Virus record (IMG/VR): IMGVR_UViG_3300044878_000205
Span: 1-64,000 of that record
Direction: 5' to 3' (one strand)
From: a virus
Taxonomy: Duplodnaviria > Caudoviricetes
Length of the DNA: 64,000 nucleotides
In this document: positions 13,737 through 62,317 of the stretch, piece after piece
How positions within the stretch are numbered: position 1 is the stretch's first letter
Layout of the letters: every line of letters begins with the position of its first letter
Position numbers and translations under genes: made by a program
Notes under the pieces: model-generated
Database searches by the model: none
Seen by the model: only the letters and a program-made list of their open reading frames with translations
What the model was told of the DNA's origin: nothing

Positions 13737-14516
13737 ATGCAGAGAATTTCCAGCTGGACCGATTTGGTCGCCGCCCTGGGCCTTTTTCGTTACGGCACCG
13801 TAACGGGCGGGGTCGCACCCACACCGCTCAAGGCGGAATGGCTGAACATGGTGCAGGAAGAGTTGGCCAATTTTATCCTGGCTTACTTGCCCGCGCTGGA
13901 CGTCAATGACAACACGCAGCTGCTCAAGGCCATTCAGGCCTTTGGGTCAAGCTACCCCCTGAAGGCCACCACCTTGGCCGGCTACGGCATTTCGAATGCG
14001 TACACCAAGCTGGAGACTGATGGGCTGCTGTCGCAGAAAGCCAACAACGCCACCACCTTGGCCGGGTACGGCATCCTTAATGCCTATACCAAGCCGGAGA
14101 CTGATTGGCTGTTGTCGCAGAAAGCCAACTGGGCGATCACCTTGGCGGGCTATGGCATTGGCGATGCGTATACCAAGACAGTGATCGACGCCGCGTTGGC
14201 TACCAAGCAAGACAAAAACACCGCGGTGATGGCGCCCGTGGGATGGCGCCTGGATAAAGCCACTGGGTTTCTGGAACAGTGGGGCAATGGCTATTGCCCG
14301 CCGGATACCACCACCGCACCAATCGACTTTCCGACGCCCTTTGCCGAGGTTTACAACTGCTTCGGAAACAAGATCACCACCAACGCGGTGGACAGTGACG
14401 GCAACTCCGCCGGGGCTTTTTCGACCAGCGCGACGCAGTATCAGTTGTTCAACGATACGAATCTCATTGGGGTCACCGTGCATTGGCGCGCAATTGGCAA
14501 GGCCCCTGGGTACTAA
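13737..14516 (+). CDS. Short tail fibre with ~27-aa TLAGYGI.NAYTK repeats (copy 1)
   Basis: ATG at 13737 right after the YmfQ stop; AEWLNMVQEEL anchor; three repeats; LEQWG...FPTPF C-domain. Confidence 0.85.
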   Translation: MQRISSWTDLVAALGLFRYGTVTGGVAPTPLKAEWLNMVQEELANFILAYLPALDVNDNTQLLKAIQAFGSSYPLKATTLAGYGISNAYTKLETDGLLSQKANNATTLAGYGILNAYTKPETDWLLSQKANWAITLAGYGIGDAYTKTVIDAALATKQDKNTAVMAPVGWRLDKATGFLEQWGNGYCPPDTTTAPIDFPTPFAEVYNCFGNKITTNAVDSDGNSAGAFSTSATQYQLFNDTNLIGVTVHWRAIGKAPGY

Positions 14517-14590
14517 CCCGGACAGGCCCGGTCACCCCTCACACAGCCCCGGCCCGCACAGCGGGTTTTTTTACGTCTGGAGAAACATGC

Positions 14591-16393
14591 ATGACCGAGA
14601 TTTCCGCGCTAGAAGCCTACGCAGGCCAGATATCGGAAGCGGCGCAGCTTTCGACTGCGGCAGCAGAACTACAGCACCGCTTTGTCCATGGTGGCGTGGA
14701 TGAGGTCATCCAGACCGAATCTGGCCCGCTGCCGTCGCTGGCCAAGTGGCGCCAGGATTTAGCGCTGCTGGAGACGCTGCTGGCCGACCCGAACGATCCG
14801 AGTAAGGGGGTAGGGAAAATTCCCTCGGCGATTCGCACCGTCGGCACGGTGGCTGAGATGGTGGCCATGTCCGGGTGGGTGGCTGGGCAGCGCGTGCAAA
14901 CCTTGGGGTACTACGCCTTGGGTGATGGCGGGGCTAACGTGTACACGGTGGTCGCCAAGGGGGCGTCAGTCGTGGATGGCGGGCGCTTCATCGCCACCTC
15001 GAATGCCGGGCTATTGTTTCGCGGCGAGTTTATCAATGGCGAAGTCCGGGTCAAGCAGTTCGGTGCTGCCTTCAACGTTGCGGTGAATGACACCTTACCG
15101 TTTGCATTGGCCACGTTGTTTGCCCGCACGCGGGGGTATTGCCCGGTAAAACTGGAACCGGCCACGATCCTGATCGACCCGTGGACGCCGGGCAACAAGG
15201 ATGTGTTGGAAGGGGCTGGGCGAGGTCGCAGTTTCATCAAGGGCACCGCGGGCACTCACGTCTTAAAGCTCAGCAGTAAAGCCGTGGGGGTCGTCACCGA
15301 TCGTTTAGACCCATGTAAAGACGTCAAGTTGCGGGATTTCACCGTCCTCGCCGACAACGCCGATTTTGGCATCTACGTGAACTTCGGGTTATTCCTCGAC
15401 CTGGATCGGATTACCGTGTGGAACGCCAAGGTGTGCAACGTGTTTATTGCGTACTGCTTTGGCTGTGACTTCGGCGATCTGACGTACGAGTACGGAAAAG
15501 GCACGGGGCTCGAGTTCGGCAACAACCGGTTTGGCTGGCCCAATATCGTGGGCGAATCCCCGGTGTTGAACCACGGCAACTGTATCCGGCGGGCGCGTGG
15601 ATACAGTAATGGCCTGGGCTTGGTCGCCAGACCCGCCACCGTCAGCGGCGCTATTGATGGGGCCGGTTCGGTGTGGGGCCCGGGTTTCGTCAATGATATC
15701 GGCCTGGTCTACAACGAACTCAATAATGGGACTGGGGTTGTGGTGCTGCCCGGAATGGGCTACACGCTGGCGATGGTGTACAACGAGAAAAACGACAACT
15801 TAGCACTGCCGGCGGACACTCGCACTGAGGTGTATGCCAACAGCAGTGAGGCGTCTATTGGTGACGTGTTTACCGAATACGGTGGCAATCATGCTGTCTG
15901 GAACGCCAACGTGCTCTGTATCAACAACCACCGTGGGGTACAACTCAACGGCCCCGGCTTCGTCAAGATCACCGGGCTGTACAAGGGCACCTACGCCACC
16001 AATCCCCGCCTAGTTCCGCTGCTGATCTTCTCCGCCAAGGGCAACAAGTTGGAACTTACTAACAGCTTTACTTTGCCGGCCAACTTGCCGCCTGAATCTT
16101 CCCGGCAGTATGAGCGCAGCGGCGCCTACCGCATGTACCCGGAGGTCACCATTGAGGATGCGGCGACGCTGACAGCGGGCCCGAACATCCGCATCTACAA
16201 AAAGTCGGATGGGACGTCGGTCTACAATGGCACTCTCTTGATGACAGGCGCGCAGACAGCGGGCACGCGGGTAAAGCTGCCGGCCTTGGACTTTTTATGG
16301 GACCCGGCGGAAACCTATCGAATTCAGTTTTATGGGTTGGATGGTTACGCCGGCCGGGTCGGCATTAGTCTGTATGTCGAGGTGATGGTCTGA
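14591..16393 (+). CDS. Tailspike / receptor-binding protein, putative beta-helix depolymerase (copy 1, 600 aa)
   Basis: GGAG RBS; N-terminal ~68 aa shared with 52569..54947; GYY..GDGG and VKQFGA motifs; G/N-rich core. Confidence 0.75.
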   Translation: MTEISALEAYAGQISEAAQLSTAAAELQHRFVHGGVDEVIQTESGPLPSLAKWRQDLALLETLLADPNDPSKGVGKIPSAIRTVGTVAEMVAMSGWVAGQRVQTLGYYALGDGGANVYTVVAKGASVVDGGRFIATSNAGLLFRGEFINGEVRVKQFGAAFNVAVNDTLPFALATLFARTRGYCPVKLEPATILIDPWTPGNKDVLEGAGRGRSFIKGTAGTHVLKLSSKAVGVVTDRLDPCKDVKLRDFTVLADNADFGIYVNFGLFLDLDRITVWNAKVCNVFIAYCFGCDFGDLTYEYGKGTGLEFGNNRFGWPNIVGESPVLNHGNCIRRARGYSNGLGLVARPATVSGAIDGAGSVWGPGFVNDIGLVYNELNNGTGVVVLPGMGYTLAMVYNEKNDNLALPADTRTEVYANSSEASIGDVFTEYGGNHAVWNANVLCINNHRGVQLNGPGFVKITGLYKGTYATNPRLVPLLIFSAKGNKLELTNSFTLPANLPPESSRQYERSGAYRMYPEVTIEDAATLTAGPNIRIYKKSDGTSVYNGTLLMTGAQTAGTRVKLPALDFLWDPAETYRIQFYGLDGYAGRVGISLYVEVMV

Positions 16394-16547
16394 CGCCAGT
16401 GAAGGCCTATGGCGGGGCGCCCCGCCACACCTCCCAGGCGGCTCGCTGAGTTTAAAATACCCTTAAAGTTAGGCGTGTATGCAGCAGCAAAGCCGGTTCG
16501 GTTAGTGTAAAGTTGCCACACTTAATTGAACTGGCTGAGGGGTACTT

Positions 16548-17693
16548 ATGCAGGATGCAAAACGGTTTCGGGCGCTCGATAGTTTTAGGGGACTCTTTGC
16601 GCTATCCGTGGTTATTTATCATATGGATATTGTCGGGACCTTCACAGACTTAGCGTTTTTTCGACATGCCGATTTATTTGTGGAGTTCTTTTTTGTCTTG
16701 AGCGGGTTTGTCATGGCACATGCTTATGGCAAAAAAGAACGCGTGGATTTTCGGCGGTTTGTGATTGCTCGGACGTTCAGACTGTTGCCGCTGCACTGGC
16801 TAATGCTGGCAGTCTTTATAGTGTTAGAAGTCTGCAAGTCAATTGCTTATAGCAAAGGTATTTCGTTTAACTATGAGCCTTTCACCGGCGCCGCTGCACC
16901 GTCTGAAATCCTCCCGAATGCCCTGTTGCTTCAGTCGTGGACCAGCTTGACCGACCCGTTGTCGTTTAACTATCCGTCCTGGAGCATCAGCGTCGAATAT
17001 TACATGTACATGATTTTTCTGGCGGTCTTAGCGGTCGGGCTCAAGCAAAGGGTGTTGGTCTGGGCGGCCATAGCGGCATTGGCCTTTGTGGCCTTAACCT
17101 CGGATGTTGATATCCTGACGCCGAGCGCACTGCGCGGCTTGTCATGCTTCTTTGCGGGCGCGTTGTCCTATGTGCTGTATCGTTATATCAGCGACAAAGT
17201 GTCTTGCAGCTTTAAAGTACTTACGTGTTTAGAGCTGCTGTCGTTGCTGTTGGTTGTCCTGCTGCTGTCGTTTAACTTTGACAGCAAGGTGCTACTGGCC
17301 AGCCTGCTGTTCTGTTTGGTGGTGGTGGTGTACGCGTTCGATGGGGGCGCCGTGTCCAAAGCACTAGATACCCGCTGGTTTTCCTTGGTCGGCAAAGTCT
17401 CCTATTCAGTTTACCTCACGCATGCCGCAGTGTGGTTTTGCACCCTTTCCGGGTTCATCGTTATGCAAAAGGTCTTCGGTATTGAGCTGGCGCCGATGAT
17501 TGATGACAAGCGCTACATTGATACAGGCAACCTGCTTTTAAATAATGTTCTGGCGGTGTCTGTGTTATTGATTGTTATTGGTGTTTCTGTCGTAACGTAC
17601 AAGTACGTCGAAGTGTGGGGCCAGAGCATCGGCTCACGCATCATTAATAGAGGATCGAAGTTTAGCGCGATGCCGGAGATTGGCCGTCCATAA
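16548..17693 (+). CDS. Acyltransferase-3 (OafA/YrhL-like) membrane O-acyltransferase, moron
   Basis: LDSFRG..A..V..YH, VEFFFVLSGF, WSISVE and G.VSYSVYL.H motifs; many TM segments; AT-richer than flanks. Confidence 0.9.
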   Translation: MQDAKRFRALDSFRGLFALSVVIYHMDIVGTFTDLAFFRHADLFVEFFFVLSGFVMAHAYGKKERVDFRRFVIARTFRLLPLHWLMLAVFIVLEVCKSIAYSKGISFNYEPFTGAAAPSEILPNALLLQSWTSLTDPLSFNYPSWSISVEYYMYMIFLAVLAVGLKQRVLVWAAIAALAFVALTSDVDILTPSALRGLSCFFAGALSYVLYRYISDKVSCSFKVLTCLELLSLLLVVLLLSFNFDSKVLLASLLFCLVVVVYAFDGGAVSKALDTRWFSLVGKVSYSVYLTHAAVWFCTLSGFIVMQKVFGIELAPMIDDKRYIDTGNLLLNNVLAVSVLLIVIGVSVVTYKYVEVWGQSIGSRIINRGSKFSAMPEIGRP

Positions 17694-19381: not shown

Positions 19382-19459
19382 ATGCTGCATTTCGACCGTT
19401 TGCCGCGGCTACACCCGCGGTCCGACCGCACCACTCGCCTCGCAAGGGGCGCGCTATGA
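19382..19459 (+). CDS. Rep leader peptide (Tap-like, 25 aa: MLHFDRLPRLHPRSDRTTRLARGAL)
   Basis: GGAG RBS; TGA overlaps rep ATG (ATGA); frame preserved across a 21-nt length difference in copy 2. Confidence 0.75.
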   Translation: MLHFDRLPRLHPRSDRTTRLARGAL

Positions 19460-20349
19460 CCCTCCGTGCGGTCAAGTCGTTTCTCCCGGCGGGCTCGCCG
19501 GCCAGTGCGGTGTATGCCGCCCTCGATGCCGCCCTCGACGCGCCGGCCGCCCCCTCCCAGCCACCCCCCTTCAAAAAAGTCTTGCCGCCGGTGGGCCACC
19601 AGTCTGTGCGCCGTCCGCGCCGGCTGTCGGCCAAACAAGCGGCGACCTTCCTCGGTGACGCGGTCAAGCGCATCAAGGCCGAGGCCAGCGACCGCTCCGG
19701 CAAATACCTGCGTTGCCTGGACACCGTGCACCAGGCCGGCGGCCGTACCCGCGCCGAGCGCTGGCAGGCCCTGGCGGCGATTGCCGAGCCGCTGCTGGCC
19801 CGGCTTGACATTGCCACCGGCTGCCTGGGCTACCTGGACGCGCAGGGCCAGTTCCGCCTCAACCGCCAGAACGGCATGGCCGAGGACGCGGGCATCAGCC
19901 CGACGCGCCTGTGCCGGCTGCTCAAGGCCCTGGAGAAAGCCAAGTACACCTTGCGCAAGATCAAGCGCCTGTACCGCAACGGTAAGCGCTGGGTCTGCCG
20001 CATCACCATCTACGTGCGCCCGCGCTTCTTTATTGACCTCGGACTGGGCTTCCAGCACGCCGCGTCACGCACCGCTAAGGCCAAGGCCTACCTGAAGAAG
20101 CGCCGTCAGGCGCAGGCCGTGCAGCAGCAGGCGCTGCTCGATGACGTGGCTGCCGCCCATGACCGGCGCATGAGCCATCGCGGGGCCGAGGCCGCCCGTG
20201 CTGAGACGCGCAAGGCCGCCGAGAACACCTCGAAAATCCAGGCGATGCAGCACAAGGCTGGCGTCCTCTCGGAGCTGGCCAAGGCCAACCCGGGCAAGGG
20301 CCATGCCGAGATCATGGCCCTCTACCACCAGCTGCATCCCGCCTCCTAA
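19456..20349 (+). CDS. Plasmid-type replication initiator (IncFII RepA-like), copy 1
   Basis: wHTH-like MAEDAGISPTRLCRLLKALE, I.VRPRFF..LG motif, basic C-terminal helix; leader architecture of antisense-controlled replicons. Confidence 0.7.
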   Translation: MTLRAVKSFLPAGSPASAVYAALDAALDAPAAPSQPPPFKKVLPPVGHQSVRRPRRLSAKQAATFLGDAVKRIKAEASDRSGKYLRCLDTVHQAGGRTRAERWQALAAIAEPLLARLDIATGCLGYLDAQGQFRLNRQNGMAEDAGISPTRLCRLLKALEKAKYTLRKIKRLYRNGKRWVCRITIYVRPRFFIDLGLGFQHAASRTAKAKAYLKKRRQAQAVQQQALLDDVAAAHDRRMSHRGAEAARAETRKAAENTSKIQAMQHKAGVLSELAKANPGKGHAEIMALYHQLHPAS

Positions 20350-21175: not shown

Positions 21176-21409
21176 GTGCCGTTGAGCCGCGAAGCCTTAC
21201 ACACCCAAATGAAGGAACATGCCCGGTGTCTGTCCCTGCCTCAAGTGGTCCAGTCGATTGAGAACCTGGGCGGCGGGAATTTGCCGGCGATTGAGCTCAT
21301 CTTGCGCAGCCTGCTGCTTGACGTGTACAGCGAACGTCAGGGCGCCGAAGCGGCCCGCCGGCTGATGGCTCAGCTGGAGATTGCCCAGCCGGGTGTGTTG
21401 CTGGCCTGA
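21176..21409 (+). CDS. Conserved hypothetical protein (first gene of variable operon)
   Basis: GGAG RBS and GTG start (start uncertain); near-identical to the ORF ending at 60078. Confidence 0.7.
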   Translation: MPLSREALHTQMKEHARCLSLPQVVQSIENLGGGNLPAIELILRSLLLDVYSERQGAEAARRLMAQLEIAQPGVLLA

Positions 21410-21474
21410 TTTGGATAGGGCTAGTCCCGACTTTACACCTGGTGTAAAGATGGACTTTTGAAAGGAGTCGTCGC

Positions 21475-21966
21475 ATGAGTGTCCTCTATACCCTGCCGCT
21501 AATTGACGGTCCGCTGACGTTGACCCTGGACGGTGACGCGTTGGCCGCCTTGAACCGCTATCGGCAGCTTTTGGTCTGGTCGGTCTCTCCCTGGCTTGGC
21601 CCACCGGGCGAGCCGGTGCATGAGGGATTGATCGAGGCAATGACTACGCTGGCCGATGCGATGTCGAGGTTGTCCAAGGATGCGCGCCGTGTGCCCGCTG
21701 ATCCCACGCAAGGAGCCCCCGCCCGGCCATCCGTATTGATTAATGGCGTCGAGTACGTGCCCCGCGCCGAGGTGCCGGAGCTGACCGACGAACGCCTGCA
21801 GCGCGCCCTGGGCGAGCTGGTGGCCATCCAGTATTTCCGCGAGGACCACAAGGCGGTTCGCCAAGCCTGGGACGCGCTCAAGGCGCTGGCCCCCGAGTTG
21901 GCCGAGCTGGCCGCCCGCGACTCGCAGGCCGCGTATTATCGAATCCACGGCACTCCCGACGACTGA
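21475..21966 (+). CDS. Hypothetical protein, copy-1-specific
   Basis: AAAGGAG RBS; absent from copy 2. Confidence 0.7.
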   Translation: MSVLYTLPLIDGPLTLTLDGDALAALNRYRQLLVWSVSPWLGPPGEPVHEGLIEAMTTLADAMSRLSKDARRVPADPTQGAPARPSVLINGVEYVPRAEVPELTDERLQRALGELVAIQYFREDHKAVRQAWDALKALAPELAELAARDSQAAYYRIHGTPDD

Positions 21967-21980
21967 AAGGAACCCCCGCC

Positions 21981-22223
21981 ATGCCGACCTATCACGACCG
22001 CTACGCCGCCCGCCTGCGGGCCTTTGTCTCAACGTGGTCCGGCCACAACATGGCCCATATCGCCTACCTGTCCGGGCGCAAGGCGCGCTCCCAGGGCCGT
22101 TCGCGGGGCTGGTCGTATGCTGGTGTCCTGACCTATCCGGCGCAGCGCCTGGCCCGCCTTGGTTATGTCGATGAGGCGCGCGGCCTGCCGGACCGGCTGG
22201 AGCGTGAGCGGTGGCAGGATTGA
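21981..22223 (+). CDS. Hypothetical 80-aa cassette-like ORF
   Basis: Starts in the shared GAAAGGAACCCCCGCCATG leader; ends 10 bp before the dif-like site. Confidence 0.7.
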   Translation: MPTYHDRYAARLRAFVSTWSGHNMAHIAYLSGRKARSQGRSRGWSYAGVLTYPAQRLARLGYVDEARGLPDRLERERWQD

Positions 22224-22232
22224 GCCCCGCGC

Positions 22233-22260
22233 GTTACGAGTAACGGCGTTTATGTCAAAT
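22233..22260. other. dif-like XerC/XerD recombination site 1
   Basis: GTTACGAGTAA-CGGCGT-TTATGTCAAAT (11-6-11); right arm matches the XerD arm TTATGTTAAAT at 10/11. Confidence 0.7.
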
Positions 22261-22274
22261 CGCACGGCACACAA

Positions 22275-22340
22275 GGCTACCAAAGGGTGGCCTTTTTTTG
22301 TGCCCGCCGTTACCACTTTGCGGTAAAATGGACTACCGTT
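22275..22340 (+). promoter_or_regulatory. Terminator followed by promoter with palindromic operator
   Basis: GGCTACC-AAAG-GGTGGCC plus T run, then TAAAATGG-ACTA-CCGTTTTA; equivalent at ~60938-61020. Confidence 0.55.
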
Positions 22341-22396
22341 TTAGCGTGTTCTGGTTTTAGAGCGCGTCACCCCACACCCCGAAAAGGAGATCCCGC

Positions 22397-22750
22397 ATGA
22401 CCCTGCTGACCCCGATAATTCGCAAAGACACCCCGGACGCGGAGTACCGCTTTTTTGTCTACTGCCCCAACGACGCAGACTTCACCTACTACCGCAGCGC
22501 AGAGGACCGCGACAAGGACGCTGACCGGGTGATCCAGTCCTATCTCGATGATGGCTGGGATGAAATGGTCGAACAGGTGGTGGCTGGGGAAATGACCCAC
22601 TTCTGCGGGCAGGTCGGTCGCGAAGATCGACCCGCCGAGAGCGAGCTGGATGAAGAGCAGTGCGACGGCACCGGCAAGCATTGGGGCGAGTGGGATTACA
22701 CCTGCAATTACGATCTGCTGCCGTTGGCAGAGCTAGAGGTAGCGGCATGA
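22397..22750 (+). CDS. Acidic hypothetical phage protein
   Basis: AAGGAG RBS; coupled to next ORF. Confidence 0.7.
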   Translation: MTLLTPIIRKDTPDAEYRFFVYCPNDADFTYYRSAEDRDKDADRVIQSYLDDGWDEMVEQVVAGEMTHFCGQVGREDRPAESELDEEQCDGTGKHWGEWDYTCNYDLLPLAELEVAA

Positions 22751-23106
22751 GCATCGCCGTGGATATTGACGCCCAGGTGAGCCTGCTGCTGGAGCGCCTG
22801 GACAACACCGCGACCGATGCCCAGCTGCTGGTCGGGTTGTGCGCCCAGGCGCCGCTGGTACGGGAGGTGGCCGCCGCCTGCCGGCAGACCGCCGCCTTTA
22901 CCCGATCCGCCGCGCAGTTCGCGGCCTTCCAGGTCGAACTGGAAGCGGAGCATGCCGAGGACGAGCGCCTGCTCGCGGCCTGGCTGCACTTTCTGGATCG
23001 CCTCATCAGTGCCCCGACTCGCTTGCACATGATCGGCTCGGTGCGCCTGTGCTTGCCGCTGGTGGCCCACTACCTGCCGGAGGTCGGCGATGGCGACCCT
23101 CGCTGA
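22747..23106 (+). CDS. Hypothetical protein
   Basis: ATGA overlap with upstream ORF; GAGG RBS. Confidence 0.65.
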   Translation: MSIAVDIDAQVSLLLERLDNTATDAQLLVGLCAQAPLVREVAAACRQTAAFTRSAAQFAAFQVELEAEHAEDERLLAAWLHFLDRLISAPTRLHMIGSVRLCLPLVAHYLPEVGDGDPR

Positions 23107-23266
23107 AATTCGCGACCTGCTGCAGCGCGGCGAAACCGTGAGTCTGCAGCGCCGTTACGTGGCGCGCGTGCTGGAAGGCCTGGCCGCCTCGGCGCAGGGC
23201 ACCGAGCAATACCGCGTGACCCCGCGGCCGGGTCGCATGGCCGACCTGGTCCTGGAGCGAAAATGA
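23090..23266 (+). CDS. Hypothetical 58-aa protein (MATLAEIRDLLQRGE...)
   Basis: GGAGG RBS; stop overlaps next ATG; read manually, not in ORF track. Confidence 0.6.
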   Translation: MATLAEIRDLLQRGETVSLQRRYVARVLEGLAASAQGTEQYRVTPRPGRMADLVLERK

Positions 23267-23469
23267 ACAATCGTCACGGGCTGGACGTGGACTACTTCCG
23301 GCGCAAATTGCTGCGCCTGGCCCGTGACCTGGAGCAACAAACGCCGTCCGACTTTGCTCGGGACTGTGCGCGTCTGTCGTGTCAGGCAGACGCGGCGGTG
23401 CGGGCTCAGGCAGAGTACGCCCGCCCGGCGCCGGCCCCCGACGATCAAGACCTGCAGGAGGAGCGCTAA
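23263..23469 (+). CDS. Conserved small hypothetical protein
   Basis: Homologue at 61363..61569. Confidence 0.75.
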   Translation: MNNRHGLDVDYFRRKLLRLARDLEQQTPSDFARDCARLSCQADAAVRAQAEYARPAPAPDDQDLQEER

Positions 23470-23867
23470 TGCCCCGTTACTGGATTCGTTTCACTGTGAC
23501 CACCAAGCGCCAAAGCACGGAGCACACGCGCACTCTGGAAACGGAATTCCCGCTCGAATACGACAGCGATATCGCCGCATTGCAAAAGGCCCTGGAGGCG
23601 TCCCGCAGCCCTGGCAGCACGGTGACGCTGACCACCTGGCGCGAACTCAAAGGCGAGTCGCGCTACGTCGATCCCTGGTCAACCACGCATAACCCGCTGG
23701 CCGATCCGACGCAGCCGGCAGGCTGGATCTATACCCTGCACCTGGACGAGGGGCGGACCGTCAGCCGCTTCAGCTGGACCCCGGACAATCCGTTCGGCGA
23801 TGTCGCTGCCGGGCAGGCGCTGACCGTGGCGCCGTTGAAGGTCGACCTGGACGAGGCGACGTCGTGA
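23469..23867 (+). CDS. Conserved hypothetical protein
   Basis: GGAGGAG RBS, TAATG coupling; homologue at 61569..61967. Confidence 0.75.
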   Translation: MPRYWIRFTVTTKRQSTEHTRTLETEFPLEYDSDIAALQKALEASRSPGSTVTLTTWRELKGESRYVDPWSTTHNPLADPTQPAGWIYTLHLDEGRTVSRFSWTPDNPFGDVAAGQALTVAPLKVDLDEATS

Positions 23868-24019
23868 CGGCGTGCCTGGGGCTGGTCGGTGAGGCGCGGC
23901 TGGGCGCGACCCCGGCTGGGCTGGTACGCTGGCACCGCTGCCGGGCGGTGGCAGTTGGCCGCGCCGCGCCGCTGTGGCAAGGTGCGCGCCAGTCTCATGG
24001 ATTTGATGCGAGGGTATGC

Positions 24020-24271
24020 ATGATTGGAAAGGCCTTGGATGAGGATGCGTTGCGGCTGCTGGTGAGCCAGCAGGCGGTGCGCGAGTGCAAGGTGGCCCGG
24101 CAACGGCAGGCCCCGCAGCGCTGGACCCTGGAGGTGCGCTTGGGCGGGTCGCAGGCGCGCTGGATACCGGTGCGCTCGCGGCGTGAACCGGTGCGAACCT
24201 GGGCCAGCCTGGAGACCCTGAGCCGCTTTGCCGTGGCGGTCGGCCTGCAGGAGTTTGTCGTGGAGCTGTGA
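24020..24271 (+). CDS. Small conserved protein, weak resemblance to plasmid 'ParC'-annotated proteins
   Basis: R.W.SL.TL..F...G...F.V pattern; homologue at 62066..62317. Confidence 0.55.
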   Translation: MIGKALDEDALRLLVSQQAVRECKVARQRQAPQRWTLEVRLGGSQARWIPVRSRREPVRTWASLETLSRFAVAVGLQEFVVEL

Positions 24272-24287
24272 CCGGTCACATGCGCAC

Positions 24288-24318
24288 AAAAAAGCCCCGA
24301 ACCAGTCGGGGCTTTTTG
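24288..24318. terminator. Bidirectional intrinsic terminator
   Basis: AAAAAGCCCCGA-ACCAG-TCGGGGCTTTTT between convergent genes; identical at ~62335-62363. Confidence 0.85.
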
Positions 24319-24335
24319 TTGGGCGCTGGAGCGGC

Positions 24336-24479
24336 CTAGCGGTTCCACCGTGCCAGGGCCAAGGCTTGCTTGGTCCGCGGTGAGCAAGTGGCGAGGAAGT
24401 AGGCCATCTGCCGCGCGGACAGGTTCAGCAGTTCGTTCAGCGGTTTGGCGCGCAGGGTGGTATATTCGTGCTCTGACAT
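24336..24479 (-). CDS. Conserved 47-aa microprotein (MSEHEYTTLRAKPLNELL...)
   Basis: AAAAGG RBS; same length and frame at 62382..62525. Confidence 0.65.
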   Translation of the reverse strand: MSEHEYTTLRAKPLNELLNLSARQMAYFLATCSPRTKQALALARWNR

Positions 24480-24554
24480 GTCGGTTACCTTTTGCGGGGT
24501 TTCGGTGTGTTATGAGCGCCCAGGTCTTCGACCACCTGGGCGCTCAATCCCTTC

Positions 24555-24851
24555 TCAGTTGCTGGGTTCCCAGCCTTTCTTTTTCATGTAATCAGCCATC
24601 GCTTCTTTCAGCACATCCACTTGCGCCATGTCGTTGCTCGCGCAGAACAGGCGGAAGTTGCGGCGGTACTCCTGGGCGACCTTAAAGCCCAAATCCACCA
24701 GTTTGTTATCGGCCGGCACCTTGGTGTTGTTGCCGACGCTGGCCGTTTCCGCGGCGGACTGCGGCGGCTCGCCCAGGCTGCGGCGCGGGGGCTTGGCCAC
24801 TTTGACGGCTGGGGCGGTAGTGGGCTTGGTTTGGGTGGTATTGGTGGGCAT
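24555..24851 (-). CDS. Ribbon-helix-helix partition partner (type Ib, ParG-like), copy 1
   Basis: Disordered N-terminus, LGFKV beta-strand plus two helices; directly downstream of parA. Confidence 0.75.
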   Translation of the reverse strand: MPTNTTQTKPTTAPAVKVAKPPRRSLGEPPQSAAETASVGNNTKVPADNKLVDLGFKVAQEYRRNFRLFCASNDMAQVDVLKEAMADYMKKKGWEPSN

Positions 24852-24895
24852 GGCAGTGATCCTGTGGTGAATGACTGGAGCTTAGCAGGGGTTGC

Positions 24896-24923
24896 GCTAA
24901 TTAGCTAATTCGCTAATTGGCTA
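24896..24923. repeat. 8-bp-period repeat array (parS-like)
   Basis: GCTAATTA-GCTAATTC-GCTAATTG-GCTA between parA and its partner. Confidence 0.75.
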
Positions 24924-24929
24924 TGCGGA

Positions 24930-25583
24930 TCAAACCGCGGTCAGCCGTTCAAAGTGGTCAACGGCGGATTGGATGACTTCCAGGGCTTTCAGGCGCGGCC
25001 CTTTGTACGGGGTTTCGATGATCGAGCGGCCTTCGTTCATGGCGTTGGCGTAAGCGTCTTGATGCTGAATCGAGCCGGCGAGCACGGCAAAGCGGGTCTT
25101 GCCCAGGTACTCGCGCGCGAGGTCAATCGGCGCCTTGCGCGCTGTGGCCTTGCACAAGGCAAAGACCAGGCGCTCGGCGGGGATGCCGTGTTGGTCGACC
25201 AGACTGTTGGCCAGGGCCACCTGCGGCTCCAGGTCATCCAGGGTCAGGCCGGTGGGCAAAATCAGCAGCTGACAGGCTTTGGCGATCTTCACGGTTTCTT
25301 CGGTGGCGTTGGCCGGGCCGTCGAAAATGAACAGGTCCGCGTCACCGGCGCGGCTGAGGGCGGTGGCGACGTTTCCATACAGCTGCACTGGCACGTCGGG
25401 GGTGATGCCGGCGCGCAGGCGGCGGTGTTGCCAGTTGGTGGCGGTGGCTTGTTTGGTGTCGAGGTCGATGATCTTCATCAGCCAGCCGGCTTCGGTGTAG
25501 GCGGTGCCGAGGGCGCGGGCCATGGTGGATTTCCAGGCGCCGCCTTTCTGTGAAATGCAGCCGATAGCGAGGGGGATTTGCAT
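24930..25583 (-). CDS. parA: ParA-family ATPase (copy 1)
   Basis: SQKGGAWKST Walker A, IDLD.KQ, FIFDGP and LILPT motifs; 217 aa without N-terminal HTH. Confidence 0.9.
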   Translation of the reverse strand: MQIPLAIGCISQKGGAWKSTMARALGTAYTEAGWLMKIIDLDTKQATATNWQHRRLRAGITPDVPVQLYGNVATALSRAGDADLFIFDGPANATEETVKIAKACQLLILPTGLTLDDLEPQVALANSLVDQHGIPAERLVFALCKATARKAPIDLAREYLGKTRFAVLAGSIQHQDAYANAMNEGRSIIETPYKGPRLKALEVIQSAVDHFERLTAV

Positions 25584-30454: not shown

Positions 30455-30511
30455 GGGCGCCTTGTGCGTCACGGCCTCGCTTTGCCTGAAATCCGTCCAA
30501 GGAGGCTTTCC

Positions 30512-31801
30512 GTGCCGAAAACCCTGCAGGTCGCGCTGTCCGATGCGGCCATCAAAAAGCATGCGGCTGACCCTGCTGTTCGCGAGCTCAACGACCCGCG
30601 GCACCCCTTGCGCTTTCGCTACCGGCTCAAGGATCGCACTCAGGGCAGTTGGCATGTGGTGCGTCGTGGTCAATGGAAGAAGGCCGGCAACTGGCCGGAA
30701 ATCAACGCCCGGACCATGCTCGACAACCTACCAGCGGTGTTGTCGCGCCTGCAGGTTGATCCGGCGGCGGTGGCCACGGTCGGTGCCTGGAGTAGTGTCG
30801 GCCAGTTGCTTTCCTGGTACGCCGAACGGGTCCAAGTCGGGCGCACCTTGTCCAAGCCGCGGCAAAGCACCGTGCTCTCGGCGATCCGCAGGCAACTGGT
30901 ACCGCGCCTGGGTGATCTGCCCTTGGCCGACCTCAATAAGACCAGCCTGGACGAGCGCCTGTACCTGCCCCTACAAGCCGAAGCCAGCCTGGCGCATGTC
31001 CGCGCGGTGTTCGCCATCCTCAAGTTGGCCTGTCGTCGGGCCGTGGCCATGGACCGTCTGCCGACCGATCCGCTGGCTGGGGTGTCGTTTGGGCAGTTCA
31101 ATAAAACCAACATCAAACCCAAGGGTGCGCGTCTGCGACATACCGCGGTACCGGCGCTGCTGGCTCATTGGGCGGCGTCCTATGTCACCGCACCGCGCCA
31201 CGTGACCTTTGCCGTGCTGATGTTGGCCCATGGCACCCGCCTCAATGAAACCCGTTTGGCCCGCTGGCAGGACGTCGACCTGGTCAATGCCGAGTGGTTT
31301 ATCCCGGCGCGGGTGACCAAGGGTGGCCGAGACCATGTCCTGCCGCTGACCGTCCAGGCGTTGGCCTTCCTTCAACAACATAAACGTCTTCAACAGGGGC
31401 GTGGTTATGTTGGGGCCTTTCTCTTTCCCTCGACCACCCGATCCGGCCAGCCCCTGAGTCGTGCTCAAGCCTTTGAATTGTTCACCTGGTTAGGCCAAGG
31501 CGAATGGACCAGTCACGACCTGCGCAAATTGGCCAGAACCACGTGGGCCGAGTTGGGTGTGGATTCGGTGGTCGGTCGCTTGTTGCTCAATCAGGCCCTG
31601 CCCACCCTCGAAGCCACCTATGTGCAAACCACTGCCCTGGTGCGCAAGCGTGAGGCCCTGGAGCGCTGGCACGCCTGGCTCGATGAGCGCGGGTTTGCCG
31701 CCCTGCACGGTGCGACCCCGGCAAGACCGGTCGCCACGGCCACCCCCGTTCAGCCCGCGTCCGCCGTGGCCTGCGCGGCCTTTTCCCAACCTAACGTATA
31801 A
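30512..31801 (+). CDS. Tyrosine recombinase / integrase
   Basis: GGAGG RBS and GTG start; GTRLNE (R), TKGG (K), HDLRK (HxxR), ATY (Y). Confidence 0.88.
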   Translation: MPKTLQVALSDAAIKKHAADPAVRELNDPRHPLRFRYRLKDRTQGSWHVVRRGQWKKAGNWPEINARTMLDNLPAVLSRLQVDPAAVATVGAWSSVGQLLSWYAERVQVGRTLSKPRQSTVLSAIRRQLVPRLGDLPLADLNKTSLDERLYLPLQAEASLAHVRAVFAILKLACRRAVAMDRLPTDPLAGVSFGQFNKTNIKPKGARLRHTAVPALLAHWAASYVTAPRHVTFAVLMLAHGTRLNETRLARWQDVDLVNAEWFIPARVTKGGRDHVLPLTVQALAFLQQHKRLQQGRGYVGAFLFPSTTRSGQPLSRAQAFELFTWLGQGEWTSHDLRKLARTTWAELGVDSVVGRLLLNQALPTLEATYVQTTALVRKREALERWHAWLDERGFAALHGATPARPVATATPVQPASAVACAAFSQPNV

Positions 31802-37077: not shown

Positions 37078-38300
37078 TGAAAGTATTAAAGAAACTCGGC
37101 CAGTTGATGGGCCGCAAGAGCGATCCCCTGGTCATCGACACGCCGGAAAAATTGGCGCGCGCCCTGGGGATCGGCTACGACAGCACCGCCGGGCAGATGG
37201 TCACCACCACCAGCGCCATGCAGCAGACGGCGGTGTTCAACTGCGTGCGGGTGCTGGCCGAATCGGTGGGCATGCTGCCCTGCCGGCTGTTCAAGAAGTC
37301 CGGCCGCGACTTGCTGCCGGCCACCGATCACCGGCTGCATGAGCTGTTGACCATCGCACCGAATGACTACATGACCGCCCAGGAGTTTTGGGAGCTGCTG
37401 GTGGCCTGCCTGTGCCTGCGCGGCAACTTCTTTGCCTACAAGGTCGTGGCCCTGGGCAACGTGGTCGAGCTGCTGCCGCTCAACCCGTCGATTGTCACGC
37501 CCAAGCTCAAGGACGATTGGACGGTCGAGTACAAAGTCGACTTTGCCGACGGCACCCGCTATCTGTCCCAGGATGAAATCTGGCATGTGCGCCTGTTCAC
37601 CCTGGACGGTCTCAACGGTCTGAATCCGATTGCCTATGCCCGGCAAGCCCTGGGCTTGGGGCAGGCGATGGAGGCGCACGCGGCGAAGTTGTTCACCAAC
37701 GGCGCGGTCACCTCCGGCGTGTTGTCCACCGAGCAGGCGTTGAGCGACGAAGCCTTCGGGCGGTTGAAGACGCAGTTCCAGGGCGAGCACATGGGCGTGG
37801 CCAACGCCTATAAGCCGATGATCCTGGAGATGGGCCTGAACTGGAAACCGATCAGCCTCAATGCCCAGGACACGCAGTTCATCGAATCCAGGCGCCTGAG
37901 CGAGTCGCAGATCTGCGGCCTGTTTCGCGTGCCGCCGCACCTGGTGGCGAACCTGGAAAAGATGACCCTGAGCAACGTCGAAAACATGGGCATGAGCTTC
38001 GTCAATTACTCGTTGGTGCCCTACCTGACCCGCATCGAACACCGCATTCAAGTCGGCCTGCTGAAGAAGTCTGAGCGAATTAGCTATTTCGCGAAGTTCA
38101 ACGCCGGCGCGCTGATGCGTGGCGACCTCAAGGGCCGCTACGAATCCTACGGCAAGGGCATTCAGTGGGGGATTTTGAGCCCCAACGATTGCCGCGAACT
38201 GGAAGACCTCAACCCCCGCGAGGGCGGCGATATCTACCTGACCCCGATGAACATGACCACCAACCCCGAGGCGGACGATGCAAACAAAACAAAGACGTGA
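37077..38300 (+). CDS. HK97-family portal protein
   Basis: AVFNCVRVLAE, PNDYMT, F.VPPH and GILSPND.R.LE motifs. Confidence 0.96.
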   Translation: MKVLKKLGQLMGRKSDPLVIDTPEKLARALGIGYDSTAGQMVTTTSAMQQTAVFNCVRVLAESVGMLPCRLFKKSGRDLLPATDHRLHELLTIAPNDYMTAQEFWELLVACLCLRGNFFAYKVVALGNVVELLPLNPSIVTPKLKDDWTVEYKVDFADGTRYLSQDEIWHVRLFTLDGLNGLNPIAYARQALGLGQAMEAHAAKLFTNGAVTSGVLSTEQALSDEAFGRLKTQFQGEHMGVANAYKPMILEMGLNWKPISLNAQDTQFIESRRLSESQICGLFRVPPHLVANLEKMTLSNVENMGMSFVNYSLVPYLTRIEHRIQVGLLKKSERISYFAKFNAGALMRGDLKGRYESYGKGIQWGILSPNDCRELEDLNPREGGDIYLTPMNMTTNPEADDANKTKT

Positions 38301-52568: not shown

Positions 52569-54947
52569 ATGACCGATATCACGGCGCTGGAGGCTTACGC
52601 GGGTACGCTGTCGGAGGCGGCGCAGTTATCAATGGGCGCGGCCCTACTGCAACATCAATTCGTCCATGGCGGAGTTGATGAGGTCATCCAGACAGAATCA
52701 GGGCCCCTGCCATCGCTGGCCAAATGGCGCGTCGACTTGGCGACCATTGAAACGGCGCTGGCCAACCCGAATGTCGGGCCGGGCATGGTCGGTTGGAAGC
52801 GCAGTGCGTTGTCTGATTCGATTAAAACAATCGGCCAGATGCTGTCGGCCCAGGCCTATAACGTCTGGGAGCACGCGAACCTCATCATTAGCAAGCCCAC
52901 ATCGGACCACCGCACCTGGGACTGGGCGCCCGCTATCGTGGCCGCCTGGAATGCAACGCCGATTGGCGGCTCCCTTGTTATTCCGATGGGGGTACATATT
53001 GGTTCGGCCGTTACCCTGACAGACAAGGCGGTCAATCTGTACTGCATGGGTCCGATCACGGTCGCCGATGGTAATTTTACGGCCCTGTACTTCGACGGCA
53101 CGGCCAATGTGACCGAGTACCCTGGCACCATCCTGACCGGCATTGCCGGTGGCGATACGAAGCTGAATTTTATCCCTGGAATGGCGCCTGCGCTTAACCC
53201 GACCGACTACTACTTGGTCATCTACTCGCTTGAGGCCAACGTCAACCGGGTCAACGAGACGTACTACATCCCTTACAGCAAGCGGGAGACTCACGGACTC
53301 AGCCACTATGACTGGTCGCTCCACGATCCAATCCTGTACACCTATGCTGATCTGTCGGGTGTCACCTTGCGGTTCATCAAGAAGGCCGCCAGGACCAAGA
53401 TCGTCGGCCTGACGCTGCAGGCGGACGCCAGCACAAACCGCTCTGCGCGCGACCTTCTGCGCACCCGCTGCAAGAGTTGCGTTGACTTCGAGGGTCTGCA
53501 CATCAACAGCGCCCTGGCCGATCGCGCTGGGTTTGGCTTCGAAATCTACGAGTGTTTTGATTTCGTGCTCAACTCGCCGCGGGTATCCGGCTACAACGTA
53601 AGCGGGGTGGACTCGTACAAGATCAGAAGTTTCATGTCGGCGCACCTGGTCTTTAACGACTACATTGATGCCACTGATGCTGACCCTGTCTCGCCCAATA
53701 ACAAAACAGAGCGCGCCTACGCCTCTATGTACAGCAACATGATCACCTTCAACAATTGCTACTTGAATGGGATCGATGAGCACTACGGCAGTCGATACGT
53801 GATTAACGGTGGCAGCCTGTCCCATCGCGGTATCGGGTTTGCAGGGCGAGACGTGACGATCAACGGGACGAAGTTTACCGGCCCTGGCGCGCTGTTCCAG
53901 CCCCGCGATGATTCGCCGTCTTGTCACGGCACGCTGCTCATCAATAACGTTGAGCTCGACGCGGTTAGCCAGTTGATCCAGGGTGAAACAGGCATCATCA
54001 CGGACCCGCTGGGGCGCACCACGCCGTTCAAAATGTTCGACCGGATACTTGTCGATGGAGTGGTAGTAAAAGGTGGTCTTCAGTCTTGGGAGAACATTAT
54101 TTCGTTCCGCGGCATCCGCAACGCAACAACCTTCACTTCATCCAAGACCACATTGATTGATGTGCGCAACTTGAAGGTCTACAGCGAGCGGACCAATGTC
54201 AACCACAGCATCATGCAGTTCGCGAGCATCTGGGTCGAAACGGTTAACGCAGAAAACTGGGAGATCGCTGATAGCGCGGTGGCGTACCGGGGAGACATTC
54301 GATACTTGGGTCCGGCCTACGATGCGCTCAACATCGGCGAGCTGAAAGTTGCCAACAGCCGGGTGACTGTTTACGGGATAAGGAACACGGCCAAGTTCAC
54401 CATGCGCGGCGGATCTCTGGCCGGTAGCGGTGAGAGCCTTCTGGTGGAGGGGGGCTTTGGTGCCGTGGCGGTATCGCTGAAAGGGGTCGAGCTGAACAAG
54501 CCCCTGGCAGAGTCGGTGCCAGTGGCCGGAGTCAACCCCACTTGGGATATCGTCGATTGCACGATAAATGTTGCCCCTAGCAACTTGACTGGGCGAATTG
54601 CGCGAGGTCTTCGCAATAGCATAGCTCTCGGCGTGACCATTCCTGGAGCGCTGGTGGGTAAGCTGCGGATCTACGAGAACCCCGCAATGTTTTCGCCTAC
54701 CACGATCACGGGTAGCGCGTCGTGGACGATTCCCGCTATCGCGTCGGGTGCGTCATTGCCTAACAACTTTACCCTGGCAGGTGTCGCGTTTGGCGATCAA
54801 GTCGATGTTGCCATATACGCCCCCTCCGTTTCGGCAACGGCTCAAGTCACCACGGCCGACACGATTGCCGTGGTGATCAACAACAACTCTGGGACTTCGG
54901 TGACGCTTGGGGCTCAGACGCTACGGTTCACGGTAAGAAAGCTCTAA
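52569..54947 (+). CDS. Tailspike / receptor-binding protein (copy 2, 792 aa)
   Basis: Shares only the N-terminal ~68 aa with the copy-1 spike; long beta-rich body. Confidence 0.75.
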   Translation: MTDITALEAYAGTLSEAAQLSMGAALLQHQFVHGGVDEVIQTESGPLPSLAKWRVDLATIETALANPNVGPGMVGWKRSALSDSIKTIGQMLSAQAYNVWEHANLIISKPTSDHRTWDWAPAIVAAWNATPIGGSLVIPMGVHIGSAVTLTDKAVNLYCMGPITVADGNFTALYFDGTANVTEYPGTILTGIAGGDTKLNFIPGMAPALNPTDYYLVIYSLEANVNRVNETYYIPYSKRETHGLSHYDWSLHDPILYTYADLSGVTLRFIKKAARTKIVGLTLQADASTNRSARDLLRTRCKSCVDFEGLHINSALADRAGFGFEIYECFDFVLNSPRVSGYNVSGVDSYKIRSFMSAHLVFNDYIDATDADPVSPNNKTERAYASMYSNMITFNNCYLNGIDEHYGSRYVINGGSLSHRGIGFAGRDVTINGTKFTGPGALFQPRDDSPSCHGTLLINNVELDAVSQLIQGETGIITDPLGRTTPFKMFDRILVDGVVVKGGLQSWENIISFRGIRNATTFTSSKTTLIDVRNLKVYSERTNVNHSIMQFASIWVETVNAENWEIADSAVAYRGDIRYLGPAYDALNIGELKVANSRVTVYGIRNTAKFTMRGGSLAGSGESLLVEGGFGAVAVSLKGVELNKPLAESVPVAGVNPTWDIVDCTINVAPSNLTGRIARGLRNSIALGVTIPGALVGKLRIYENPAMFSPTTITGSASWTIPAIASGASLPNNFTLAGVAFGDQVDVAIYAPSVSATAQVTTADTIAVVINNNSGTSVTLGAQTLRFTVRKL

Positions 54948-55034
54948 CGGGGCTCCCTCCTCCTGTTGTTTTGGGAGGGTGGGGCTGGATCAAAACTTAA
55001 AATTTACCGTTCGTAAACGGTAGGGGCTCTTTTA

Positions 55035-55289
55035 ATGGCACTTAAAAAAAACCTTGAATTCCGTGGCATCTTGGTTCCGGATGCCTACATCAAGATTGCA
55101 ACCACCACGATCATCGCCGGCAATGAGTGGATTGACTTCTGCGTGCATTACCTGGCCACGGATACTGGATCACCCTTTAACAGCGTGAACGTGCAGTGCG
55201 CCTACAATCTGCTGGGCGACAATCCCATCAAGCAGGGCTATGAGCACCTGAAGACGCTTCCTGAGTTCGAGGGCTGCACCGACTGCTGA
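55035..55289 (+). CDS. Small tailspike-associated protein
   Basis: MAL.K...DAYIKI...NPIKQGYEHLKTLPEF...DC pattern typical of genes after tail fibres; copy-2-specific. Confidence 0.65.
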   Translation: MALKKNLEFRGILVPDAYIKIATTTIIAGNEWIDFCVHYLATDTGSPFNSVNVQCAYNLLGDNPIKQGYEHLKTLPEFEGCTDC

Positions 55290-55344
55290 CAGTTAGTCGG
55301 CAGAACGCCGTGGATGTGGAGCCCGAAGGCTCCATTTTGACTTG

Positions 55345-56379
55345 TCAGGCTGCTTGATATTGTCGGATTCGCTGAAACAGGGATTCCGCAGAGACTGATT
55401 TTGGCGGGGCCAAAAGTGCGCCGAGCCGGTAACGCTTGATGATGGCCTGGGCGACCAGGGGCGCTGCTATGCCGATCAGCGTACCAATGATCAGGTGAGC
55501 TGCCGGCGTCTGCACCCCGAGCAACTTGCTAAGCGCGACTCGCGCACCGCTCCCCGCAAGAATATGCATCAGATAAATCGTCATTGACGACGCTCCTACA
55601 TACATGAGCCACTTTATGTTTATTCGGCTGAGGCACATGGATACTGCAACAATGAAGAGTATTGAAACTGTTGCGAGAATTAAAGATTCAATCCCTTCTG
55701 ATTCAGAAGACAACGCCATGACGTCATGAAAAATATATTGCCCGGCTATAAACAGGGCGCCAAAAGCAATTGCAAGTGCTGCGTACGTCCTCTCGAATAT
55801 TGATTTTATATCGTCGAAGCAAATCCCAAGGATGAAGAAAAATGTATTCCCCAGGATGAATTCAGTGATCATATTTGAAGGCATAGCACCCTTGATGGTG
55901 TATAGAACAGCAAAGGCAGTTAGTATCAATAAACTCCGAGACTTATCAAATAGCGTGTACACCAATGAGCTGGTGACGAATACCAAAAATAATGCATACA
56001 AGAACCAGAACTGAGCCCTTGGCTCCCACGCGAACGACAGAACCTCGCCGAATGTCACGCTGCCATTTGTGTATTTTGACAGGACGCTTTCCATGGAACC
56101 CTGCAGTAGAGACCATATAACGAATGGGTAAAGTATCGTGTCGACCTTGTTAATTATCAGGCCTGTTGCGCCGCGGCTTTTGAGGGAGTTGTAAAAAAAC
56201 AGGCCTGACAGGAAAAAGAAAAGAGGCATGTGGAAGCTGTAAATAATGCTGTCCACCAGCTGGAATATGCTTTCATCCATCTGCATCCCAGCACTGTGTA
56301 CGCCGCGCGCAACATGCCCGTACACGACAAGGATTATTCCTATTGCCTTTGCGTAGTCTACCCAGGAATTTCTTTCCAT
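55345..56379 (-). CDS. Acyltransferase-3 (NolL / fucose O-acetylase-like), moron
   Basis: WVDYAKAIGIILVVYGH, FHMPLFFFLSG, WFLYALF and IYLMH motifs; AT-rich. Confidence 0.9.
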   Translation of the reverse strand: MERNSWVDYAKAIGIILVVYGHVARGVHSAGMQMDESIFQLVDSIIYSFHMPLFFFLSGLFFYNSLKSRGATGLIINKVDTILYPFVIWSLLQGSMESVLSKYTNGSVTFGEVLSFAWEPRAQFWFLYALFLVFVTSSLVYTLFDKSRSLLILTAFAVLYTIKGAMPSNMITEFILGNTFFFILGICFDDIKSIFERTYAALAIAFGALFIAGQYIFHDVMALSSESEGIESLILATVSILFIVAVSMCLSRINIKWLMYVGASSMTIYLMHILAGSGARVALSKLLGVQTPAAHLIIGTLIGIAAPLVAQAIIKRYRLGALLAPPKSVSAESLFQRIRQYQAA

Positions 56380-60342: not shown

Positions 60343-60384
60343 GCCCGTCGCGTTACCCCTAACGAACTGAAAGGAACCCCCGCC

Positions 60385-60909: not shown

Positions 60910-60937
60910 GTTACCCATAACGCCGTTTATGTGAAAT
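60910..60937. other. dif-like XerC/XerD recombination site 2
   Basis: GTTACCCATAA-CGCCGT-TTATGTGAAAT; XerC-type CATAA inner end, XerD arm 10/11. Confidence 0.75.
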
Positions 60938-61072
60938 CGGCCCCCCCCTTTCGACCAAAGGTGGGGGCCTTTTTTTGTGCTCGCCGTTACCAGAATGCTA
61001 TAAAATGGACTACCGTTTTATAGTGTTCTGGTTTTACGCAGAGCCCGCCACTCACTCGAAAGGAAACCGCCC

Positions 61073-62065: not shown

Positions 62066-62317
62066 ATGATTGGGAAGTCACTGGATGAGGACGCATTGCG
62101 CCTGCTGCTGAGCCAGAACGCGGTGCGCGAGTGCAAGGTGGCCCGGCAAAAGCAGGCGCCGCAGCGCTGGACCCTGGAGGTGCGCCTGGGCGGATCGCAG
62201 GCGCGCTGGATACCGCTGCGCTCACGCCGTGAGCCGGTGCGCACCTGGGCCAGCCTGGACACCCTGGAGCGCTTCACCAATAGCGTGGGGATTCTGGCGT
62301 TTCTCGTGGAGTCGTGA
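62066..62317 (+). CDS. Small conserved protein (copy 2)
   Basis: Homologue of 24020..24271. Confidence 0.6.
   Translation: MIGKSLDEDALRLLLSQNAVRECKVARQKQAPQRWTLEVRLGGSQARWIPLRSRREPVRTWASLDTLERFTNSVGILAFLVES

Follow-up and report, generated by a model that had tools for sequence, protein, structure and literature searches.

What would a tailed phage do with a site for the chromosome-dimer recombinases of its host? The 64,000-nt stretch analysed here (the window; positions 1 to 64,000 of the IMG/VR record IMGVR_UViG_3300044878_000205) carries two copies of a 28-bp dif-like sequence, one in each of two related phage units, A and B. The original prediction proposed that such a site is either the resolution site of a plasmid form or the junction through which units integrate and stack in tandem. 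Our preferred reading, with a probability of about 0.55, is that host XerCD would resolve plasmid dimers at this site and that its accessory DNA would be bound by a protein encoded by the element itself.

22233..22260, + strand: Xer core of unit A, with a XerC-like arm at 22233-22243, the spacer CGGCGT and a XerD-like arm at 22250-22260
60910..60937, + strand: Xer core of unit B, with the spacer CGCCGT

Both are 11-6-11 sites which, as described originally, are intergenic, lie at the equivalent position in each unit and have neighbouring genes that are not homologous between the units. The joint core pattern at up to three mismatches matched these two places alone, where none was expected (100 shuffles). 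Compared with the Pseudomonas aeruginosa dif as excerpted from PMC2731167, the arms match at 17/22 and 18/22 positions, the two top scores of the contig; two of 60 shuffled contigs reached 17 and none reached 18. Five dif sites were taken from Pseudomonas genomes harbouring relatives; unit A matched these at 16-18/22 and unit B at 17-19/22, and in one host the first six bases of the XerC arm of dif are identical to those of the phage arm. The sites have the parts of an XerC/XerD core: 11-bp arms, a spacer, an inner dyad and 17-20 of 22 matches to dif arms. Among 68 distinct cores from related elements, 60 have a 6-bp and eight a 7-bp spacer. The inner TAA, C5, G22-T23 and A26-A27 are conserved and position 24 varies, the pattern of conserved and variable positions described for dif in the part of PMC2731167 consulted. 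Counting against an Xer site is A25, which is highly conserved in dif and is C in 23 of the 68 cores. The sites do not resemble a chromosomal dif in their setting, since they lie on a phage-plasmid, have GC-rich spacers and are not points of convergence of the KOPS motifs (5 and 4). Conservation extends about 100 bp past the XerD arm, which the original prediction had overlooked.

The record is a single 76,588-bp contig made up of two units of about 38.2 kb, with no host DNA. The units are 83-92% alike across long BLAST segments and have three exact repeats of at least 127 bp in common, their lengths being 174, 219 and 128 bp; the contig passes from A to B at the 174-bp one.

38069..38242, no strand assigned: 174-bp exact repeat of units A and B

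The contig starts with exactly the final 127 bases of this repeat, 16 kb from the Xer site. In SPAdes assemblies, 127 is the largest usual k. A plasmid contig (L029) likewise has a 127-bp terminal repeat. In run X1, pieces of unit A had a depth of 46-49 before the 174-bp repeat and 22.8 after it, with 52 for the other version; elsewhere depth was 30-35 and paired ratios of 1.0-2.1 show that the measure is noisy, so this drop is only suggestive of an assembly join. The simplest reading, and a likely one, is that the two-unit contig is a figure-of-eight assembly path through two co-occurring circles. With exactly two units, no host DNA and a start inside the 174-bp repeat, the record gives no footing to the array or junction first proposed; because the joined units are probably an assembly product, the one-base spacer difference between them, taken originally as a means of stabilising the array, needs no such role. 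All third relatives are 79-92% identical to both units, making crossover mapping between A and B uninformative. Phage contigs of two units can be assembly products, and caution is advisable in interpreting them.

Each unit encodes a head, a contractile tail, lysis functions, cI/cro, a tyrosine recombinase and a ParA-ribbon-helix-helix pair, together with a Rep whose assignment is weak.

19456..20349, + strand: candidate plasmid replication initiator of unit A (RepA_IncFII_LM, E 1.3e-4, a weak match below the cut-off)
24555..25583, - strand: ParA ATPase and its ribbon-helix-helix partner, a plasmid partition pair, unit A
30464..31801, + strand: phage tyrosine recombinase of unit A, in the late-gene region, with R, K, HxxR and Y present and Gln at the His/Trp position

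Homologues of the candidate Rep occur on 33 PLSDB plasmids. A search of PLSDB with the recombinase gene returned 36 circular, non-mobilisable records, many of 36-48 kb, from Vibrio to Delftia, and the four Pseudomonas relatives inspected, pHN2 among them, are phage-plasmids. No phage in INPHARED matched the par-cI region. Virion genes, replication and partition genes (the Rep assignment being weak) and circular extrachromosomal relatives indicate that each 38-kb unit is likely a phage-plasmid of Pseudomonas. The 82-kb record of pHN2 (L001/L002, NZ_CP085886.1) contains a 41-kb phage-plasmid twice over, in nearly exact copies. The tailspikes differ between units A and B and each adjoins an O-acetyltransferase, in unrelated orientations (14483-17693; 52569-56379), suggesting that the two may use different O-antigen receptors and carry out serotype conversion. 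Upstream of the site, several small unrelated genes are preceded by a 19-bp ribosome-binding repeat (21965, 60102, 60369, 60637), forming a cassette-like gene array.

The conserved DNA beyond the XerD arm is part of a module whose order is Xer core, terminator, two YCA-N13-TGR boxes on the XerD side, variable genes and a gene for an 83-aa ParC-like protein.

22273..22299, + strand: intrinsic-terminator-like hairpin and T run of unit A, between core and boxes
22313..22331, + strand: box 1 of unit A, CCA-N13-TGG, at +53 from the core end, with a -10-like TAAAAT at 22324-22329
22336..22354, + strand: box 2 of unit A, CCG-N13-TGG, at +76 from the core end
60990..61031, + strand: boxes 1 and 2 of unit B (60990-61008 and 61013-61031)
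24020..24271, + strand: 83-aa ParC-like gene of unit A, last in the operon behind the boxes, with the co-varying Arg54 in RS-R-RE
62066..62317, + strand: ParC-like gene of unit B, with Arg at the co-varying position

About 95 bp past the XerD arm align without gaps, including the hairpin, the T run and the boxes at +53 and +76, and on the XerC side nothing is conserved beyond 10 bp (majority frequency 0.37). Elements were admitted with at least 10/12 box bases, at least 15/22 arm bases and a shift of at most one. The register from core to box is exact in 109 of 117 elements (61/68, and 48/49 further ones) and off by one in the remainder; it was scored only within ±1, so that larger shifts count as misses, as in a Delftia plasmid that is off by about 2. 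The register holds across 52 bp of intervening sequence with a mean identity of only 0.53. Of 61 in-register elements, 52 have a T run starting at +33; the terminator is lost in 9 of 61. Between box 2 and the next start codon the distance varies widely, from 13 to 84.

Carriers of the module include Pseudomonas phage-plasmids, small plasmids, prophages and an ICE. A strict pattern for core plus box 1 was found in 24 of 401 Pseudomonas species genomes (including the unpublished G155) and its reversed control in none. Scanning by pattern yielded 13 loci in IMG/VR and 8 in GTDB, of which one was discarded as chance; the Cyclobacteriaceae match L028, which arose from a repeat, was discarded on this ground. 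Searches anchored on proteins avoid the circularity of such scans. Among 31 loci anchored on the recombinase, 18 have the ParC-like gene, and 16 of those 18 have the core. The best 30 ParC-like loci from the 401 Pseudomonas genomes have a core in 27 cases, with 22 within 1.5 kb, three with 7-bp spacers and two farther upstream. For 17 weaker homologues, seven have a core, one has boxes only, one is ambiguous and eight lack core and boxes alike within 5 kb. In IMG/VR, 70 of 80 ParC-like loci have the core, seven are too short and three miss it. The ParC-like gene lies 0.1-3.7 kb behind the boxes, immediately behind them in some small plasmids. Six complete plasmids of 3.9-8.3 kb (two of them near-identical) have the core and no recombinase Pfam match, and the chance of finding such a core was 0.5-2% each for the four tested. 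The "resolution site of the plasmid form" proposed originally fits well with these small recombinase-free plasmids. Counting against it, many copies are within an ICE or prophages that are integrated, and it is hard to see what such elements would gain from a site for resolving dimers. A blastn search of PLSDB with the 141-bp site returned nothing, the query being too short and too diverged.

Outside Pseudomonas, the betaproteobacterial Delftia phage-plasmid pHQS1 (L138:23006) has the module with a 7-bp spacer, boxes off by about 2 and the ParC-like gene, and an Aeromonas relative has one 17/22 site and no ParC-like gene. Broken modules were also seen (L044:2602, L045:2004, L021:10027); in one type the end of a serine-resolvase gene has replaced the XerC arm, in another the core is shortened, and in the third the core stands alone, with both boxes and gene missing. 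In P. aeruginosa plasmids (L040:2719-5550) the module operon continues into anti-CRISPR genes, and in another locus (L003) it includes a Lar restriction-alleviation gene; from these operons, the ParC-like protein may regulate anti-defence cargo. ParC-like genes without a module adjoin reverse-transcriptase and AAA-subtilase defence-type genes in three loci (L126, L127, L129).

The 83-aa protein is a distant relative of the ParC (NF041544) and KorA (NF041289) models. It falls short of the cut-offs of both, at 14 bits for the window protein (KorA) and 27 bits for its best homologue (ParC, cut-off 95). Its fold is predicted with confidence (pLDDT 90). A Foldseek search with this predicted fold gave no match at E 0.001 and a sequence search gave no solved relative. 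VIA-align ranked ribosomal eL38 first (Z 7.0, rmsd 2.5 over 64 residues), a degree of similarity that common arrangements also reach. A free integrase arm-binding domain was considered and had no real support, with an hhalign probability of 3.5% and no place among the fold-search rows.

Residue 54 of this protein co-varies with the outer bases of the boxes. Where it is Gln, all four variable box positions are T/A (TCA..TGA) in 10 of 10 elements; where it is Arg or Lys, none of 57 elements has at least three T/A positions, although Lys is mixed in 4/9. In 49 held-out elements the rule held for Gln in 5/5 and for Arg/Lys in 44/44, in a search that sampled only Arg, Lys and Gln. Pooled over 115 elements, 15 with Gln have TCA..TGA and 100 with Arg/Lys have CCA..TGG, with no exception, and the box bases of two loci (L118 and L038) were predicted prior to inspection. 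Every other protein column makes at least four errors in tracking the box bases. On a tree built with residue 54 masked, there are 5-6 changes and the boxes switch with each; a tree of the DNA region has only three. Five independent pairs of starred branches give a sign-test p of 0.0625, which is the floor for five pairs and puts 0.05 out of reach. Pairing of Arg or Lys with guanine and of Gln with adenine is the textbook recognition code. The co-variation is good evidence for direct binding, and the ParC-like protein very likely binds the boxes, with Arg/Lys reading G and Gln reading A.

It is highly probable, judging from the core and its carriers, that XerCD acts at the core in plasmid-dimer resolution. 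It is also probable, with somewhat less assurance, that the ParC-like protein represses a promoter inside the boxes. A -10-like hexamer lies within them in 50 of 61 elements, the gene is the last of its operon, its product has a distant similarity to the KorA repressor model, and two loci (L119 and L137, one with its own tyrosine recombinase) keep boxes and gene without a core. A sigma-70 scan of 21300-24600 found no promoter. Autorepression, which the coreless boxes and the hexamer make likely, is enough to explain binding. The core could in that case be an ordinary plasmid Xer site, acting by itself or helped by host factors, and the boxes only an operator for autorepression that travels with it as a block, an alternative we regard as doubtful but serious. 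An operator alone does not account for the exact spacing of core and boxes in 109/117 elements across a diverged terminator, kept even when the terminator is lost (9/61), while spacing downstream of the boxes drifts; nor does it account for the absence of KOPS polarity for FtsK. The fixed phasing, this absence and the parallel with parCBA of RP4 are the grounds for arguing that the same complex serves recombination too, for which we see the odds as about even.

In our preferred reading, in which the accessory boxes assist recombination, host XerC and XerD would resolve plasmid dimers at the 28-bp core and the 83-aa protein would occupy both boxes on the XerD side as accessory sites. When two sites lie in direct repeat, their protein-bound boxes might then wrap into a synapse, making the reaction intramolecular and independent of FtsK. 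The protein-box complex would replace the host PepA, ArgR and ArcA, with XerD possibly cutting first; Bregu et al. in 2002 reportedly found that accessory DNA on the XerD side reverses the order of strand exchange. GC-rich spacers unlike that of dif would guard against recombination between element and chromosome.

The other half of the original proposal, in which units would attach and integrate at chromosomal dif through the site, or be joined in tandem by it, now seems very improbable. The arms are dif-like, two direct-repeat units share a contig and the depth evidence opposing a real dimer is noisy, but none of the 68 distinct cores has the TGTATA spacer of dif or homology to it, and dif is intact on another contig in all five genomes carrying the site. 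Only one of the 401 Pseudomonas genomes has dif with box 1, off register and without the hairpin, and about one is estimated by chance. Chromosomal modules instead sit within P2-like prophages, an ICE transfer region or an island, the site being internal to integrated elements that have their own integrase. The element lacks the marks of an IMEX such as CTX, VGJ, TLC or GGI, namely dif integration and an attP spacer partly homologous to dif. The contig begins at a 127-mer branch point 16 kb away from the site, and relatives give no sign of a parental switch at the site, a comparison of low power.

An apparently intact tyrosine recombinase is encoded 8 kb from the site, and the two could in principle form a pair like Cre/loxP. 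This is very improbable given that the module also occurs on recombinase-free plasmids and unrelated backbones, that its asymmetric arms follow host dif, and that a Vibrio relative with the same recombinase has no convincing site; the target of the phage enzyme is probably other than the 28-bp site. Lastly, it is scarcely credible that the sequence is a repressor operator built on the CGTTA-N4-TAACG palindrome, which does occur alone ahead of cassette genes (at 60351, before one copy of the 19-bp repeat, and likewise in pHN2), because the relatives keep the XerD arm even though their left arms come in 37 forms and only 30 of 68 elements retain the palindrome, the reverse of what had been named as the sign of an operator, and because GTTAC matches a host's own XerC arm.

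The locus very probably holds a real plasmid-type Xer site within an apparently undescribed variant of Xer accessory control. The openly accessible full texts searched describe neither the module nor any tailed phage-plasmid resolved by host Xer, and the word "xer" is absent from the consulted part of a phage-plasmid survey (PMC7969092). The finding bears on how plasmids outside the enterobacteria direct host XerCD, the module being present on clinical and environmental plasmids, and it names a candidate accessory protein, its predicted binding sites and a predicted one-residue specificity switch. Core, boxes and a 250-bp gene might also make a compact stability cassette for Pseudomonas vectors. 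More tentatively, and with slightly less than even confidence, we propose a third route of Xer control in Pseudomonas plasmids, phage-plasmids and prophages, which would use a self-encoded ParC-like protein, phased boxes on the XerD side and a one-residue code, and be XerD-first, FtsK-independent and free of PepA and ArgR. If this is true, the ParC family, long without an assigned role, would gain a function in multimer resolution.

Several known systems have part of this arrangement, as far as the consulted portions of the cited papers describe them. The closest are cer of ColE1, psi of pSC101 and mwr of pJHCMW1, which similarly have two 11-bp arms, a 6-8 bp spacer and no recombinase of their own. 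In these, the accessory DNA is 180-200 bp long, lies next to the XerC arm and is bound by PepA together with ArgR or ArcA, all of them host proteins (PMC11724359, PMC5357621, PMC2699498). The module shares with them accessory DNA at a fixed position beside the core (109/117), but at about 95 bp it is half the size, lies on the XerD side and co-varies with an element-encoded protein. In Acinetobacter, dif-like pdif sites on plasmids also lie beside variable genes; those sites occur in multiple copies bounding modules, whereas here there is one per replicon, with accessory boxes. P1 with Cre/loxP and other phage-plasmid resolvases (PMC7969092) are likewise cases of a tailed phage in plasmid form with a dimer-resolution site, although here a host-type XerC/XerD core replaces the symmetric site of a phage enzyme. 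In the satellite phage TLC, the element-encoded factor XafT lets XerCD work without FtsK and with XerD first, and brings about integration at dif by way of an attP that shares homology with the XerC arm and spacer of dif (PMC9226527). In contrast, the module's spacer differs from that of dif, no integration at dif was seen and its protein has DNA boxes of its own. Finally, parCBA of RP4/RK2 encodes a small ParC-family protein alongside a system for multimer resolution, the site of which is also a promoter (PMC7314908, PMC6312765); there the enzyme is the plasmid's own ParA resolvase and ParC has no listed function, while the module protein is only a distant relative of that ParC.
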